Positions 27,890 through 33,040 of a stretch of DNA of 64,000 bases are shown here, in pieces; within the stretch, counting starts at the first letter, position 1, and the number at the start of each line of letters is the position of its first letter. The notes under the pieces are model-generated. The model worked only from the letters and a program-made list of their open reading frames with translations. It had not been told where the DNA came from and ran no database searches. The translations under genes and the position numbers were made by a program. Source of the stretch: Escherichia phage JN02; the sequence record MT782071.1, one strand, 5' to 3'.

Positions 27890-28013
27890 TTTAAATTCTC
27901 AATTCGAGATAATATTTAGTAGCCACGTTCTTCTGAATTTCACCTTCTTTCGACAAGTCTCTCAGTTGTAGGCTACTGCTTAGAAGAGTGTTCTCTTCAT
28001 ATAGTTATTTATA

Positions 28014-28346
28014 TCACTTATAAAGACATGGAATAGCTTTATAGTGGCATGTTACGAATTTCTGTTTAATTTCTTTAGGATGTTTAAGACCTAAAGCCAC
28101 AAATGGATGTGGAACATTTCGAATTTGTCCAACTGGTAGTGAAGTCAAATCACCGACTTCAACAAAACCTTCAGGAACATCAGGACCTACAGAATGAACT
28201 ACACATAGTTCAGGAACTTCACCTTGAACACGTTTACCAATCACAAGTCCTGATTCGGTAACTTCTTCATCACCTGCTTGAGCGGGTTCAGAAACCAGAA
28301 TGACATATTCACCAACAGCACGAATTGGGAGTTGTACTTCAGACAT
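28014..28346 (-). CDS. 31: gp31 co-chaperonin (GroES analogue)
   Basis: 110 aa; T4 size and position; middle promoter upstream. Confidence 0.9.
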
Positions 28347-28376
28347 CTTATTTCCTTGTTGTTTGACGATAGATTA

Positions 28377-28402
28377 ATAATACCATACTATTCGTAAAGC
28401 AT
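28377..28402 (-). promoter_or_regulatory. MotA-dependent middle promoter of gene 31
   Basis: minus strand reads ATGCTTTA, 12 nt, TATTAT upstream of gene 31. Confidence 0.6.
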
Positions 28403-28403
28403 A

Positions 28404-28700
28404 TTACATAAGAAGCAAACGTTCTACCGGAGTACCATCAACCGAAATTACTTTATCAAGGCGGAAAGAACGCCACTGACCTAACTTGGTATCGAATGCT
28501 CGAACTGATTCACGAGGTTCATAACGAACTTCTGTTGCTGGATTGTTATTTTCGTATTTGACTTCAAGTTCATCGCGCGAAGCAAACATCGTACGAACAT
28601 CACCGTTAGCCTTTTCAAATACAACACAATGAACGCCTACAGACAGAATAGTTTTAATACGTTCACGAAGAATCATAGTTTCTTTTTCAGTTAAAATCAT
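28404..28700 (-). CDS. hypothetical protein (31.1 position)
   Basis: 98 aa from ATG at 28700 (track used GTG at 28712 overlapping cd). Confidence 0.6.
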   Translation of the reverse strand: MILTEKETMILRERIKTILSVGVHCVVFEKANGDVRTMFASRDELEVKYENNNPATEVRYEPRESVRAFDTKLGQWRSFRLDKVISVDGTPVERLLLM

Positions 28701-28701
28701 A

Positions 28702-29283
28702 TTATTCACCACAAAAGTTTCGGATTTGTTCCCAATTCAGAGAACGAAGATTATTACGAGAGTACTGAATTACTTCAATACCGGCTTGTTTTAGAATGTC
28801 TGCCCAATTTTCAGGAGATCGATCGTATAATTCTGCATATACAACCTTTTTAATACCTGACTGCGTAATAGCTTTAGTGCAATCAGGACATGGAGAAAGC
28901 GTCGTATATAACGTAGCGCCTTCAATAGAATTACCTTTACGAGCTGCAAACAAAATTGCATTCAGTTCCGCATGGATTTCATTATTAGCAGACCATGCAC
29001 TATGAGCGGCCCGAGGTTCTTTAGCCAAAACAAAATTATCTATCCGTCCAAATGCTGTAGTGCCTTCTTTATGTCCAGCAACTATGACCGGGCTTGGTTT
29101 ATTCTTCAACCAACCATTTTCGGATGCATGTTCACAACAGTTAACACCACCGGCTGGTGAGCCATTATATCCAGTAGAGATAATGCGCCCATCTTTTTCA
29201 ATGACGGCACCAACTTTCCATGAACAACATTTTGATTCTTGAGAAATCAGATATGCAATCTGAAGGTATGTGCTAGCTTTCAT
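28702..29283 (-). CDS. cd: dCMP deaminase
   Basis: 193 aa; zinc motifs HAELNA and SPCPDC; T4 size and position. Confidence 0.93.
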   Translation of the reverse strand: MKASTYLQIAYLISQESKCCSWKVGAVIEKDGRIISTGYNGSPAGGVNCCEHASENGWLKNKPSPVIVAGHKEGTTAFGRIDNFVLAKEPRAAHSAWSANNEIHAELNAILFAARKGNSIEGATLYTTLSPCPDCTKAITQSGIKKVVYAELYDRSPENWADILKQAGIEVIQYSRNNLRSLNWEQIRNFCGE

Positions 29284-30275
29284 TATTGAACCTTATTAAT
29301 ATGAGTTAACAGCTCTTTAGTTTGTTCCCAACTGATGCACGCATCGGTAACGGAAACGCCATAGGACATATTATCAGAAATTTTTTGATTTCCTTCATGT
29401 AGGAATGATTCTATCATAATTCCTTTGACCAAATCATTAGCTGCTAAATTTTTACCAATACCAATTTGATTGCTATAATGCCCATCAGCGTTTGCATGGC
29501 TACAGTCAACCATTACATAATGATTCAGACCTACTGCCCTTGCTTTGTTAGAAGCTTCTTGAATATCAGAAGAATGATAGTTCGGGCCGTTGGTCCCGCC
29601 ACGCAATACGATATGCGTATTCTGATTACCTTCAGCTTCAACAATGCCTACAGTACCATCGACGTCCATACCCATATACCGATGAGGCCAGGCGGCACTA
29701 TACATCGCGTCTGTAGCTACTTTAATAGAACCATTGGTTGCGTTCTTGAAGCCTACGCACATCGGTAGACCTGAAGCAATTTCACGATGTGTCTGACTTT
29801 CAGTCGTACGGGCGCCAATAGCAACCCATGAGAAAATACCAGAAAGATACTTAATCGTGAATGGGTCTAATACTTCAGTTGCTAATGGAAGTCCCATACG
29901 TAGAAGTTTACGACACAATGTTCGTGCAACTATAAGACCGTGGTTCATATCAAAACTTCCGTCAAGATATGGATCATTTACAAGACCTTTCCAACCTACG
30001 GTAGTTCGAGGCTTTTCAAAATAAACGCGCATCACTAACAGAACATTAGGAAGACGAGTTTGAAGTTCAGCCAGACGTTTGCCGTATTCAACAGCAGCAA
30101 TAGGGTCATGAATTGAACAAGGACCTACAACAATAAGTTTGCGTGGGTCTTCACCATTCATAATCGAATTAACTTGTTCACGATGAGAAGCCACTTGTGA
30201 TGCGTAAGCTTCCGACAAAGGAATAATCTCAGCCAGTTCTTTTGGAGAAATAAGTTTTCCGACGACAGGTAACAT
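29283..30275 (-). CDS. 3-deoxy-7-phosphoheptulonate (DAHP) synthase, class I AroG/AroF/AroH-like
   Basis: 330 aa; colinear with E. coli AroG from memory with motifs VVGPCSIHD, KPRTTVGWKG, GARTTESQ, FKNATNG, DCSHAN, EGNQ, TDACISWE; TAATG coupling to cd. Confidence 0.9.
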   Translation of the reverse strand: MLPVVGKLISPKELAEIIPLSEAYASQVASHREQVNSIMNGEDPRKLIVVGPCSIHDPIAAVEYGKRLAELQTRLPNVLLVMRVYFEKPRTTVGWKGLVNDPYLDGSFDMNHGLIVARTLCRKLLRMGLPLATEVLDPFTIKYLSGIFSWVAIGARTTESQTHREIASGLPMCVGFKNATNGSIKVATDAMYSAAWPHRYMGMDVDGTVGIVEAEGNQNTHIVLRGGTNGPNYHSSDIQEASNKARAVGLNHYVMVDCSHANADGHYSNQIGIGKNLAANDLVKGIMIESFLHEGNQKISDNMSYGVSVTDACISWEQTKELLTHINKVQ

Positions 30276-30395
30276 AACAATCCTTAGGAGATATAAACAG
30301 ATTCTGATTCAACAATACCTTTAACCCGATTAGACAGGCTAAGTTGGTAGTGCTCAGATTTATGACCATTCTCGATAGTAATGAGATAGCTCTCA

Positions 30396-30632
30396 TTATA
30401 GTGTTCCATATACTCGAGTTGCTTCAACAAGACCATCACTGCCTAATTTAAGATTAGTAATTTGGTCACCATCTTTAGGATTAACGATTATGAGAAAAGA
30501 ACGTGGAGATTCTTGAATAACTCGTAATGTTGCATCTTGGAAACGTTCAGACACTTTATTGATGAGTGCTTGAGCAAATTCTTTTACTTTAATCTGAAAT
30601 TCGTGTACTGTAATTGGGTTTTCACTTAGCAT
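30396..30632 (-). CDS. hypothetical protein
   Basis: 78 aa; ATG with GAGGAAA leader downstream of early promoter. Confidence 0.55.
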   Translation of the reverse strand: MLSENPITVHEFQIKVKEFAQALINKVSERFQDATLRVIQESPRSFLIIVNPKDGDQITNLKLGSDGLVEATRVYGTL

Positions 30633-30660
30633 TTCTATTTCCTCATTTGTTGGTAGAGTT

Positions 30661-30690
30661 ATAGTATCACAACTCCACCGTGTTGTAAAC
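30661..30690 (-). promoter_or_regulatory. early promoter
   Basis: GTTTAC, 18 nt, TACTAT, then leader CAACAAATGAGGAAA and ATG at 30632. Confidence 0.65.
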
Positions 30691-30692
30691 TA

Positions 30693-30968
30693 TTAAATTG
30701 CTTTGCATTCAATTTTTTGTGTACCGAAATTGATATCACATTGGATAACTAAATCGCCGTCAAGATCAAATACCACTATGACGTGTGCAGACCCAGGGAG
30801 AAGAGTAATAGCAATAGAATCTACTTGGTCTGGGAGCAAAGCATTGAGTACATGAGTTAGTTGAGCATGAACTCTGAGTTCGGCTGCATTATCAAGCACT
30901 TCAAACATATTATTAGCAATAATCTGACTGAAGACTACCTTTACAATTTCAGAATAAGTTGGGAACAT
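30693..30968 (-). CDS. hypothetical protein
   Basis: 91 aa; SD GAGG. Confidence 0.55.
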   Translation of the reverse strand: MFPTYSEIVKVVFSQIIANNMFEVLDNAAELRVHAQLTHVLNALLPDQVDSIAITLLPGSAHVIVVFDLDGDLVIQCDINFGTQKIECKAI

Positions 30969-30975
30969 AATTACC

Positions 30976-31200
30976 TCAGTGTACAGTATTTACTTTAACT
31001 CGAACAACAAATCGCTCGGTCGGTTCACCTACAGGAACAAACTCTACATGATATTCACCTTTGTAACGAGTATTCAGATCATTACGAATTCCTGCGAGTT
31101 TGTTGATTAATGTAGGACTCATATTAAGTCCCACTAGTTTACGAAGCATTTTGTATGCTTCATCTTCGATTTCATGATGTTTATCGTACATAGTTTTCAT
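30976..31200 (-). CDS. hypothetical protein
   Basis: 74 aa, ATG start. Confidence 0.55.
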   Translation of the reverse strand: MKTMYDKHHEIEDEAYKMLRKLVGLNMSPTLINKLAGIRNDLNTRYKGEYHVEFVPVGEPTERFVVRVKVNTVH

Positions 31201-31371
31201 TTAACCATTCAATTGCCTGGTCGACGTTATCAAATATACCGCCATCCAACCATTCTTCATGTTCATAGTCCAGCACATCAATACCGAACCGTCCATTTAC
31301 TAAAGGCCATACTACAAACAAATATTCTTTATGCTGTTCGATGGCCTCAATCACTTCATATAATCGTTTCA

Positions 31372-31372
<1 letters not shown>
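31181..31372 (-). CDS. hypothetical protein
   Basis: 63 aa acidic; TAATG coupling with pseT stop. Confidence 0.5.
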
Positions 31373-32458
<1,086 letters not shown>

Positions 32459-32459
<1 letters not shown>

Positions 32460-32758
32460 TATTTTATTCCTAAGAAAGTTTCAAGAATACGAATGTTATG
32501 CTCGCGCCGGTCTTTATTAATTTCAGCAACGTTTTTATTAATTGACTTACTTCTAACGTTTGAAGAAATAAATTTAATCATATGACTTTTGAGTTGTTGT
32601 AAATCCAACCCTTTTTCTTTAGCAGCTTTACGAAGAGCTTTACCAGCTTCATCTAGTGCCTTTGCTGCATCTTTGTCATAATTGGCAAGTGACATTCCGC
32701 GGCAGATATCAATATACTCATCAGACCGTTTGATGTAATTCTCTAGTAATGTTTTCAT
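32459..32758 (-). CDS. hypothetical protein
   Basis: 99 aa, ATG start, early promoter upstream. Confidence 0.55.
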
Positions 32759-32786
32759 TTAGATTTCCTCAATTATCCATAGGAGC

Positions 32787-32816
32787 ATTATACTCTGCTC
32801 CCGAGAGTTTGTAAAC
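32787..32816 (-). promoter_or_regulatory. early promoter
   Basis: GTTTAC, 18 nt, TATAAT; flanking inverted repeat GGAGC/GCTCC. Confidence 0.6.
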
Positions 32817-33040
32817 TATTTTACTAAAGATTCAATATACTCATGAAGAGCTTTAGTAGCTACTGCCCACTTATTCTGATATTCATTTTTCAGATTAGCA
32901 CGAGACTGAACTAACAAGCGGTCATTAGTTGGAGGCAAAGATTCTAATCGTTGAATCTGGCGCCCATAAATCATAGCCGCCATTTCAGATTCATAGATAA
33001 GCCCTTTAATGTATTCATGCTGTTCTTTAGTCATTGGCAT
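32816..33040 (-). CDS. hypothetical protein
   Basis: 74 aa; SD AAGAGGAAAAATG. Confidence 0.55.
   Translation of the reverse strand: MPMTKEQHEYIKGLIYESEMAAMIYGRQIQRLESLPPTNDRLLVQSRANLKNEYQNKWAVATKALHEYIESLVK

Follow-up and report, generated by a model that had tools for sequence, protein, structure and literature searches.

Phage-type DAHP synthases with a remodelled inhibitor pocket: an accessory gene of Mosigvirus and other T4-like phages

In E. coli the entry of carbon into aromatic biosynthesis is controlled mainly at DAHP synthase, which would therefore be the one step at which a single added gene can alter flux. The closest described relatives of the enzyme considered here are the E. 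coli isozymes AroF and AroG (PDB 6AGM and 1KFL), of which feedback-resistant variants are known. AroG residues Q151 and S180 contact the main chain of the inhibitor, and the replacements P150L, S180F and F209A/S make AroG feedback-resistant (PMC9529685); AroF becomes insensitive to tyrosine upon replacement of P148 or Q152 or deletion of I11 (PMC5791370). The phage gene itself is already known. Proteins identical or nearly identical to the one studied here are annotated in 212 phage records (with 98–100% identity in many Mosigvirus records), they have a PHROG family of their own, and the "phospho-2-dehydro-3-deoxyheptonate aldolase" of JS09, HX01, PhAPEC2, Shf125875, phiC120, PEi20/26, KLB31 and others is the same gene, so that the novelty implied by the original prediction was overstated. 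Two genome papers mention phage DAHP synthase, one as a putative auxiliary metabolic gene in its discussion (PMC11845039) and the other as a domain match (PMC8022965). No functional study of it was found in the literature, including those passages of the Petrov 2010 review that a term search reaches; the sources give its name or a general hypothesis, and no description was found of the clade, the synteny, the natural knockouts and the remodelled pocket that are added here.

The gene lies on the minus strand of the window, the 64,000 nucleotide stretch of Escherichia phage JN02 DNA (MT782071.1) that was analysed, at exactly the predicted positions, 29283..30275; the ORF listing and the profile and structure matches described below define a CDS of 330 amino acids with a TAA stop (ATG at 30275..30273, TAA at 29285..29283). 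The ORF-listing program's rule gives no in-frame start farther upstream, so the short N-terminus of the protein is real. As had been noticed from the motif TAATG, the stop codon overlaps the start of the downstream gene cd by one base (minus strand 29288..29279 reads CAATAATGAA), and the gene may be translationally coupled to cd. The latter (28702..29283, minus strand) encodes dCMP deaminase, as indicated by its Pfam PF00383 match (E 1.8e-26) and the annotation of its Shf125875 homologue. The upstream neighbour is a homologue of cd.2 (DUF7320; 30396..30632, minus strand), identified by a profile match and the annotation of relatives, and the 120 nt spacer between the two genes (30276..30395, minus strand) holds a Shine-Dalgarno sequence, AAGGA (30285..30281), 5 nt 5' of the DAHP synthase ATG, and two hairpins that lack a U tract.

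Over its full length the 330 amino acid protein is a DAHP synthase of type I-alpha, and the match is far beyond chance. It scores 252.3 bits with Pfam PF00793 (cutoff 25.5, E 5e-75), 428.7 bits with TIGR00034 aroFGH (cutoff 173.2) and 455.9 with NF009395 (cutoff 343), its best PDB match is E. coli AroF (6AGM, E 3e-105), and all of residues 1–330 align with positions 8–337 of the 341 of PHROG 5045, the phage DAHP synthase family in the category auxiliary metabolic gene (E 5.4e-182). The AroG-specific model NF006723 and the AroH-specific model NF009396 give scores below their cutoffs (363.9 against 568 and 386.5 against 463, respectively), and no AroF-specific NCBIfam model was returned for the phage protein. 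It is 51% identical to AroF and 47% identical to AroG over the full length. An AlphaFold model (pLDDT 92.6) has the (beta/alpha)8 barrel, into which the beta6a/6b hairpin is inserted (residues 198–214, strands 198–203 and 209–214), and Foldseek superimposes it on the Neisseria meningitidis and E. coli DAH7PS structures with TM 0.94–0.96 (0.95 for AroF and AroG, hairpin included) and an rmsd of ~1.5 Å.

The window protein and every one of 25 representatives of the phage proteins match AroG at all 14 catalytic and substrate-binding positions. These positions were placed by alignment to AroG, with codon coordinates verified, and span 29343..30119 on the minus strand. The metal ligands, each invariant in the 25 phage sequences, are C53 (AroG C61; 30117-30119), H260 (AroG H268; 29496-29498), E289 (AroG E302; 29409-29411) and D311 (AroG D326; 29343-29345), and the PEP and E4P site residues R83, K88-P89-R90-T91, G154-A155-R156, K177 and R225 correspond to AroG R92, K97-P98-R99-T100, G163-A164-R165, K186 and R234. 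The sequence motifs cited in the original prediction are all present, but its assignment of the metal-binding glutamate to EGNQ does not hold: AroG E302 aligns with E289 in the motif MIES and not with E294. Since both glutamates are conserved, this misplacement leaves the catalytic conclusion unchanged, and the alignment reveals no missing catalytic residue. KDO8P synthases, which belong to the same Pfam family, carry a KANRS-type motif at the KPRT position, and their non-metallo forms lack the cysteine metal ligand; this identity is ruled out by the KPRTT motif, the cysteine of GPCS and the NCBIfam matches, all of which are to DAHP synthase models. The class I assignment thus stands on profile and PDB matches, catalytic residues and fold, and the protein is very probably a competent, metal-dependent enzyme that would convert PEP and erythrose-4-phosphate to DAHP and phosphate.

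The phage DAHP synthases (319–343 amino acids) form one clade in 100 of 100 bootstraps, and their monophyly holds in a broader tree. Cellular homologues are at most 55% identical to them, and the nearest relatives by distance all have a canonical inhibitor pocket. The 25 clade representatives are intact down to 53% identity. By these phylogenetic measures the proteins form an old, phage-specific clade, and the gene has a phage-like composition (GC 41%, GC3 29%, codon index 0.668, the mean for the window being 0.671). It occupies the same position between pseT and cd in five genera, Mosigvirus, Kanagawavirus, Marfavirus, Bragavirus and Winklervirus. More distant "phage" matches were checked as possible independent acquisitions, and only Aeromonas phage HJ05 is a usable case; the contigs filed under "Acinetobacter phage MD-2021a" carry cobS and similar genes and are bacterial DNA, and the faecal "Bacteriophage sp." scaffolds were set aside as unverified.

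The phage proteins differ from AroF and AroG at the inhibitor site. Overall the window protein is 20–26 residues shorter than these two enzymes, and its N-terminus (MLPVVG..., 30258..30275, minus strand) starts near the equivalent of AroG residue 9 and therefore lacks the lid counterparts of AroG D6/D7 and AroF N8. Its catalytic cysteine is preceded by 52 residues, whereas AroG has 60 there and AroF 61 (8–9 fewer, roughly the "about 10" first estimated). This truncation is conserved across genera, with 48–52 such residues in the phage sequences against 58–95 in bacterial ones and gaps at AroG columns 6–8 in all 25 phage sequences. When the 25 were compared with the 98 closest bacterial sequences, only six columns separated the two groups at the 90%/90% level, AroG 150, 151, 155, 180, 209 and 223. 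In the window protein (29634..29855, minus strand) these are I141 (AroG P150; 29853-29855), K142 (Q151; 29850-29852), G146 (D155; 29838-29840), P171 (S180; 29763-29765), Y200 (F209; 29676-29678) and A214 (T223; 29634-29636). The substitutions P150I, Q151K, D155G, S180P, F209Y and T223A are all in or beside the inhibitor pocket and none is in the active site; five of the six columns belong to a list of 19 allosteric positions that was fixed beforehand (p ~2e-6).

Replacement of the inhibitor-backbone contacts (AroG Q151 and S180, AroF Q152 and S181, which are K and P in the phage protein) and deletion of the N-terminal lid are found in 24–25 of the 25 clade members. The clade thereby shares the positions of the feedback-resistant alleles AroG P150L, S180F and F209A and AroF Q152 replacement and I11 deletion, as well as those of N-terminal-domain engineering, with P150I, S180P, F209Y, Q151K and an N-terminal deletion (PMC9529685, PMC5791370). 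The known alleles are single laboratory mutations, whereas the phage changes are natural, combined and fixed in the clade; the substituting residues also differ (I, P, Y and K in the phages against L, F, A and I in the laboratory alleles), and the phage effect is a predicted one. The original guess of feedback insensitivity, made from the short N-terminus, is strengthened by the clade-wide replacement of residues that contact the inhibitor, and judged from these residues we think it fairly likely that the phage enzyme is insensitive to aromatic amino acids.

Judged from the 98 closest homologues, bacteria seemed to vary hardly at all at the pocket residues. Among 140 diverse representatives at 50% identity, however, Q151 is present in 74 and S180 in 88, and the pocket claim is accordingly narrowed to the closest relatives and to co-variation with the lid. 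Both residues are lost in 45 of the 140, so an altered pocket is no proof of an unregulated enzyme; in 44 of these 45 the lid residue is lost as well, and it is retained in 49 of the 67 canonical sequences. Extra paralogues of Pseudomonas, Aeromonas and Collimonas and the Pandoravirus enzyme, which are 40–50% identical to the phage clade, lack Q151, S180 and the lid residue and keep the catalytic set, but they have other residue combinations and none has the IKGPYGA signature of the phages, which is found in none of the 140 representatives. [quoted passage not shown] About 60 of the others keep PQDSFGT or close variants, with Q151 and S180 retained in almost all. The type I-alpha DAHP synthases encoded by IMG/VR giant-virus metagenome bins and prophage-like contigs have their catalytic sets complete, and most of these enzymes, unlike those of the T4-like clade, retain both a full-length N-terminus and the canonical pocket, PQDSFGT. 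Loss of the pocket is thus specific to the T4-like clade, HJ05 being a second case, and does not characterize viruses in general.

Many GenBank records label the phage genes "Tyr-sensitive", and the protein could accordingly be an ordinary AroF-type isozyme that adds regulated DAHP synthase capacity. Both in the PDB and by sequence it is indeed matched best by AroF, it has kept the beta6a/6b hairpin, and the phage protein shares with AroF the glycine at the Tyr/Phe specificity position (G202; AroG S211, AroF G212). Against this, the AroF residues Q152 and S181 and the lid that includes N8 are those replaced or deleted throughout the clade, mutation of these positions ends inhibition in the E. 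coli enzymes (PMC9529685, PMC5791370), and the label is an automatic annotation transfer that is probably wrong. We regard regulated capacity of this kind as improbable, though it is the best of the alternatives.

Unlikelier still is a pocket re-purposed to bind a non-amino-acid effector such as a nucleotide or a pathway intermediate, by which the phage would tie control of shikimate entry to its own metabolic state, beyond the mere removal of control. Within the phage clade the pocket varies less than the protein does on average (0.39 bits as opposed to 0.99), the charge is inverted by the loss of acidic and amide lid residues and the gain of K142, and the product of the neighbouring gene cd is itself allosteric and controlled by phage nucleotides (T4 annotation). 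However, no ligand is suggested by any of the data, many cellular paralogues also have S180P and have lost the lid, and the pocket residues form part of the tight-dimer interface, where conservation can be structural; the conservation fits such a role and fits equally a pocket that still binds something.

The placement of the gene in a nucleotide-metabolism operon region is borne out, as it shares a minus-strand pre-replicative block with frd, td, nrdAB, pseT and cd. A promoter and terminator scan found no terminator between the gene and cd; in the spacer upstream, a terminator-like match at 30342-30321 is weak (only 3 GC pairs and no U tract), the folding z-score is only -1.98, and an Rfam scan of positions 28000-33000 found nothing. 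Since the scan gave 17 promoter-like sites against 16.7 expected from shuffled sequences, it is uninformative alone, and the one site used here is that whose position corresponds to an annotated T4 promoter. This probable T4-type early promoter (30661..30689, minus strand; GTTTACA, 17 nt, TACTAT with TG) is situated between cd.3 and cd.2, ~390 nt 5' of the DAHP synthase ATG, and aligns with the T4 region that bears the annotated early promoter Pe133295 (cd.3/cd.2). Early co-transcription of the gene with its neighbours is therefore likely.

We propose that these phages express early a DAHP synthase that is insensitive to feedback and drives carbon into the shikimate pathway of the host, and as a whole this explanation seems to us somewhat more probable than not. 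The gene would be transcribed from the conserved promoter upstream of cd.2, on a transcript that runs on into cd. With the lid deleted, the residues that hold the amino-acid backbone of the inhibitor replaced (AroG Q151 to K, S180 to P) and the neighbouring pocket residues also changed, the inhibitor site of the phage clade would be dismantled and the enzyme not switched off by Phe, Tyr or Trp. An infected host would be unable to induce its own aroF, aroG and aroH, and its existing isozymes would still be feedback-inhibited; the phage enzyme would keep carbon entering the common pathway, with the remaining steps carried out by host enzymes (no other shikimate-pathway gene was found in the homologous 50 kb of an annotated relative). 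The output would be chorismate-derived products, namely aromatic amino acids and possibly folate precursors, a role for chorismate that is speculation. A physiological benefit to the phage is nearly as likely as not, and we put it forward tentatively. A rise in flux from the extra enzyme requires that the downstream shikimate enzymes of the host and the supply of E4P not be limiting, which counts against the explanation.

The same predicted loss of feedback would permit a high flux of another kind, in which deregulated, irreversible consumption of E4P and PEP pulls transketolase and transaldolase toward pentose phosphates for phage nucleotides. The non-oxidative pentose phosphate pathway has a well-established stoichiometry, and the gene persists among nucleotide-metabolism genes, adjoining cd, in the five genera; nevertheless the idea is inferential throughout, the place beside cd may be a matter of history, unrelated small ORFs separate the two genes in two of the genera, and the usual DAHP synthase flux is small relative to nucleotide demand. 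We think such a sink about as unlikely as a re-purposed pocket.

The gene is accessory and dispensable, which counts against the proposal of a feedback-insensitive enzyme that feeds the shikimate pathway. It is an accessory metabolic gene of most Mosigvirus phages and several other T4-like genera, and it is absent from T4, in line with the original prediction, and from RB69 and ~10 other Mosigvirus records; the phages that lack it include, besides RB69, mar005P1, JK42, moha, JK36 and ECO111 5-P. T4 has cd.1, which encodes a 112 amino acid hypothetical protein, at the corresponding spot. In the gene-less phages the stop codon of cd.2 directly overlaps the ATG of cd, and the indel comprises the 120 nt spacer and the DAHP synthase CDS. 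We note that mobillu and moha, siblings with and without the gene, were both isolated on E. coli K-12 MG1655. In phage G53 a 55 bp tandem duplication frameshifts the gene, and among near-identical Mosigvirus alleles dN/dS is 0.1–1.2 and nonsynonymous changes are not depleted, but these pairs have only 3–11 differences each and are uninformative, so between-genus comparisons were used. The latter give dN/dS values of 0.13–0.24 (rough ratios only, as dS is near saturation) and show purifying selection on the gene. Thus, although these absences, the frameshift and the scattered allele ratios would suit a dispensable passenger that at present does little or nothing for this phage, such a status is very unlikely given the between-genus ratios, the phage-like composition and an ORF that is intact in 139 close records and in the 25 clade representatives with all catalytic residues kept. 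Least probable of all is use of arabinose-5-phosphate or another sugar phosphate to give a product other than DAHP: RB69-like phages modify their DNA with arabinose and I-alpha DAHP synthases weakly accept some other phosphosugars, but the E4P-binding KPRT motif and all other active-site residues are identical to those of AroG, the discriminating substitutions all lie outside the active site, and RB69 itself lacks the gene.

At the practical level, the "Tyr-sensitive" label of the phage genes in the databases probably needs correction. The larger question is readily testable, as natural sibling phages with and without the gene and a natural frameshift (G53) exist. If the proposed explanation is true, the phage protein would be a ready-made, virus-evolved deregulated enzyme for the engineering of aromatic compounds, and these phages would provide a clear case of a lytic coliphage that overrides host amino-acid feedback, beyond nucleotide metabolism.

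The DAHP synthase gene of JN02 is a minus-strand ORF of 330 aa that starts with an ATG at 30275 and ends with a TAA stop at 29285–29283, and the original prediction of such an enzyme next to cd is correct by profile, structure and residue matches. Its product matches Pfam DAHP_synth_1 (E 5e-75) and scores above the curated NCBIfam cutoffs for TIGR00034 aroFGH (428.7 bits versus 173.2) and NF009395, and below those for the AroG- and AroH-specific models. The closest solved structure is E. coli AroF (6AGM, E 3e-105), and identities to AroF, AroG and AroH are 51%, 47% and 44%, respectively. The expected counterparts of the metal ligands and PEP-binding residues are present, all 14 metal, PEP and E4P positions of AroG being identical; only the Glu metal ligand had been assigned to the wrong motif, EGNQ, since AroG E302 (in VMVES) aligns with E289 in MIES, and both glutamates are conserved. 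An AlphaFold model built from an alignment of 25 sequences (pLDDT 92.6) has the beta6a/6b hairpin and compares with solved type I-alpha enzymes at TM 0.94–0.96 and about 1.5 Å. Judged from these matches, the protein is very probably an active DAHP synthase.

The gene lies within a long minus-strand pre-replicative block of this Mosigvirus (RB69-like) genome, which reads rnh, 32, frd, td, nrdA, nrdB, denA, rnlA, alc, pseT, cd.4, cd.3, cd.2, DAHP synthase, cd, 31.1, 31, rIII. Profile searches identify cd.2 (DUF7320) and pseT (HAD_PNKP and AAA_33) upstream, where three small ORFs also lie, and the downstream gene as dCMP deaminase (cd; PF00383, E 1.8e-26), whose ATG shares one base with the synthase stop in the minus-strand sequence TAATG, as had been claimed. 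In other phages the adjoining cd is labelled "ribD riboflavin biosynthesis protein" (phi25-307, L013:1293-1590) or "tadA" (PWKp18, L007:3496-4056); both are automatic mis-annotations. T4 lacks the synthase gene, as had been suggested, and has the hypothetical gene cd.1 in its place; in T4 an early promoter is annotated between cd.3 and cd.2, and a promoter-like minus-strand site of JN02 at 30689–30661 aligns with this region. The 120-nt spacer 5' of the synthase gene contains two modest hairpins and no U tract or Rfam match. From promoter alignment and spacer together, an early transcript through cd.2, the synthase gene and cd is inferred to be likely. The top promoter-like site of the region is at 32787–32815 on the minus strand (TTTACA, 17 nt, TATAAT; 11/12 matches), just upstream of the RB69 ORF231c homologue; it probably serves as a further early promoter of the T4 type for the same leftward unit.

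The ATG is preceded at a distance of 5 nt by an AAGGA Shine-Dalgarno sequence and there is no in-frame start farther upstream, so the N-terminus is genuinely shorter than that of AroG, as proposed; the stretch before the catalytic Cys is 48–52 residues long in phage sequences and 58–95 in bacterial ones, and AroG columns 6–8 are absent from all 25 phage-clade sequences. At the 90%/90% level, only six of 329 aligned columns discriminate these 25 from the 98 closest bacterial sequences (P150 to I, Q151 to K, D155 to G, S180 to P, F209 to Y and T223 to A), and five of the six belong to a 19-position allosteric list fixed before the comparison (hypergeometric p about 2e-6). In AroG, Q151 and S180 contact the inhibitor main chain, D155 stabilises the inhibitor site, and P150L, S180F and F209A/S confer feedback resistance (PMC9529685); AroF loses Tyr sensitivity upon replacement of Q152 or P148 or deletion of I11 (PMC5791370). 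The phage enzyme is thus rather likely to be insensitive to aromatic amino acids, and its "Tyr-sensitive" database label is probably wrong. A much less likely view, an AroF-like enzyme under normal regulation, fits its closest structural relative and has to contend with these replacements. Within the clade the replaced positions are less variable than an average position of the protein (0.39 versus 0.99 bits), so the pocket region is constrained, either by structure or by still binding something; the latter would suit a re-purposed pocket, an unlikely reading.

The canonical pocket is not universal among 140 representatives of 50%-identity clusters, since Q151 is present in 74, S180 in 88 and neither in 45, the last including extra paralogues in Pseudomonas, Aeromonas and Collimonas and the Pandoravirus enzyme. 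The lid residue is kept in 49 of 67 canonical-pocket sequences and missing from 44 of 45 non-canonical ones, which supports pocket and lid as one regulatory module. The phage clade thus belongs to a recurrent class lacking both lid and canonical pocket; its exact signature IKGPYGA occurs in none of the 140. The relatives closest to it by distance have canonical pockets throughout, and loss of the module probably took place on the phage stem, as judged from a neighbor-joining tree only. The highest-scoring representatives, P0121 and P0122 (799 and 730 aa), each have two DAHP synthase-like stretches and several others (600–770 aa) match in one; these are tandem or fused architectures.

In the 77 IMG/VR viral contigs that encode a homologue, IKGPYGA with a short N-terminus is found in 10/10 T4-like loci and no other contig; the others have PQDSFGT or close variants, with Q151 and S180 in almost all. 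Aeromonas phage HJ05 (79 kb) carries an independent acquisition by an unrelated phage, a 387 aa protein annotated as hypothetical (L015:2899-4062; 38% identity) with the full catalytic set and a His-rich N-terminal extension; it also lacks Q151, S180 and D155, and shares S180P with the T4-like clade. Dozens of giant-virus metagenome bins (IMG/VR GVMAG contigs L033–L092, e.g. L076:2953-4011 and L084:2968-4002) encode type I-alpha enzymes with canonical pockets, and neighbours such as DUF4116 repeat proteins and a GIY-YIG/zinc-knuckle protein suit an origin in giant viruses; the isolates Pandoravirus quercus and celtis encode an enzyme too, with a non-canonical pocket. "Acinetobacter phage MD-2021a" contigs were discarded as probably mislabelled bacterial chromosome; in these contigs (L017, CAKLQH020000056.1) aroF adjoins cobS and a gene for ribazole phosphatase.

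The gene was not captured recently from E. coli. Out of 5.8 billion proteins searched, the closest matches are of phage or phage-like origin (319–343 aa, 55–98% identity); cellular homologues are taxonomically mixed, and none exceeds 55% identity or is shorter than 341 aa. The 25 phage sequences are monophyletic (100/100 NJ bootstraps), also after addition of 150 diverse representatives; GC, GC3 and codon usage match those of adjoining phage genes, and Mosigvirus, Kanagawavirus, Marfavirus, Bragavirus and Winklervirus share its position and orientation between pseT and cd. It has long resided in T4-like genomes, with dN/dS of 0.13–0.24 between genera. Shigella phage JK45 (L012, NC_054940.1), classified as Tequatrovirus jaykay, matches the Mosigvirus version at 98% identity in its cd.2–DAHP synthase–cd locus; either its taxonomy label or its mosaic ancestry calls for attention.

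The gene is accessory. The full 4.4-kb region is present in 139 records, and cd.2 directly abuts cd in 20, including RB69, mar005P1, JK42, moha, JK36 and ECO111 5-P, along with several phages that are less closely related, e.g. WG01 and QL01. Escherichia phage vB_EcoM_G53 (MK327943.1), otherwise 97.5% identical in the region, is a natural knockout; a 55-bp perfect tandem duplication within the gene (L010:994-1048) puts it out of frame beyond about residue 231, and the gene is annotated only as a misc_feature. At its start the JN02 spacer carries TAATGAGAGCTATCTCATTA, which forms a perfect 8-bp hairpin (30379–30398, minus strand) and resembles TAATGAAAGCTAGCACAT, the genuine cd.2/cd junction sequence present where cd starts and in phages with an empty site; it could be a junction relic and a short repeat mediating gene loss or gain. 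In Bragavirus, Proteus phage PM2 has a homing endonuclease gene between pseT and the synthase region (L008:1106-1822) and two small ORFs separate synthase and cd, marking the locus as an insertion hot spot.

As an annotation the gene is not new: tblastn detects full-length homologues in 212 phage records, of which 89 reach ≥99% and 50 have 95–99% identity, and many are named phospho-2-dehydro-3-deoxyheptonate aldolase, aroF, AroG or DAHP synthetase, and the family is PHROG 5045 (auxiliary metabolic genes). The phiC120 genome paper lists the domain only (PMC8022965), a Klebsiella-phage paper hypothesised a role in aromatic amino acid synthesis (PMC11845039), and our literature search, including a term search of the Petrov 2010 review, turned up no study of its function. 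We propose that the phage would make active enzyme early in infection that aromatic amino acids could not inhibit, bypassing the host's main control point and driving PEP and E4P into the shikimate pathway, whose remaining steps host enzymes would carry out. Chorismate or aromatic supply is a possible, somewhat doubtful benefit; an E4P/PEP sink favouring pentose supply is an unlikely alternative. A near-neutral passenger gene, also unlikely, would suit the empty sites and the G53 knockout and must accommodate the low dN/dS, and a changed substrate sits poorly with the intact active site. Natural phage pairs with and without the gene exist for comparison, and what is added here is a specific, testable case for natural deregulation of a phage DAHP synthase.
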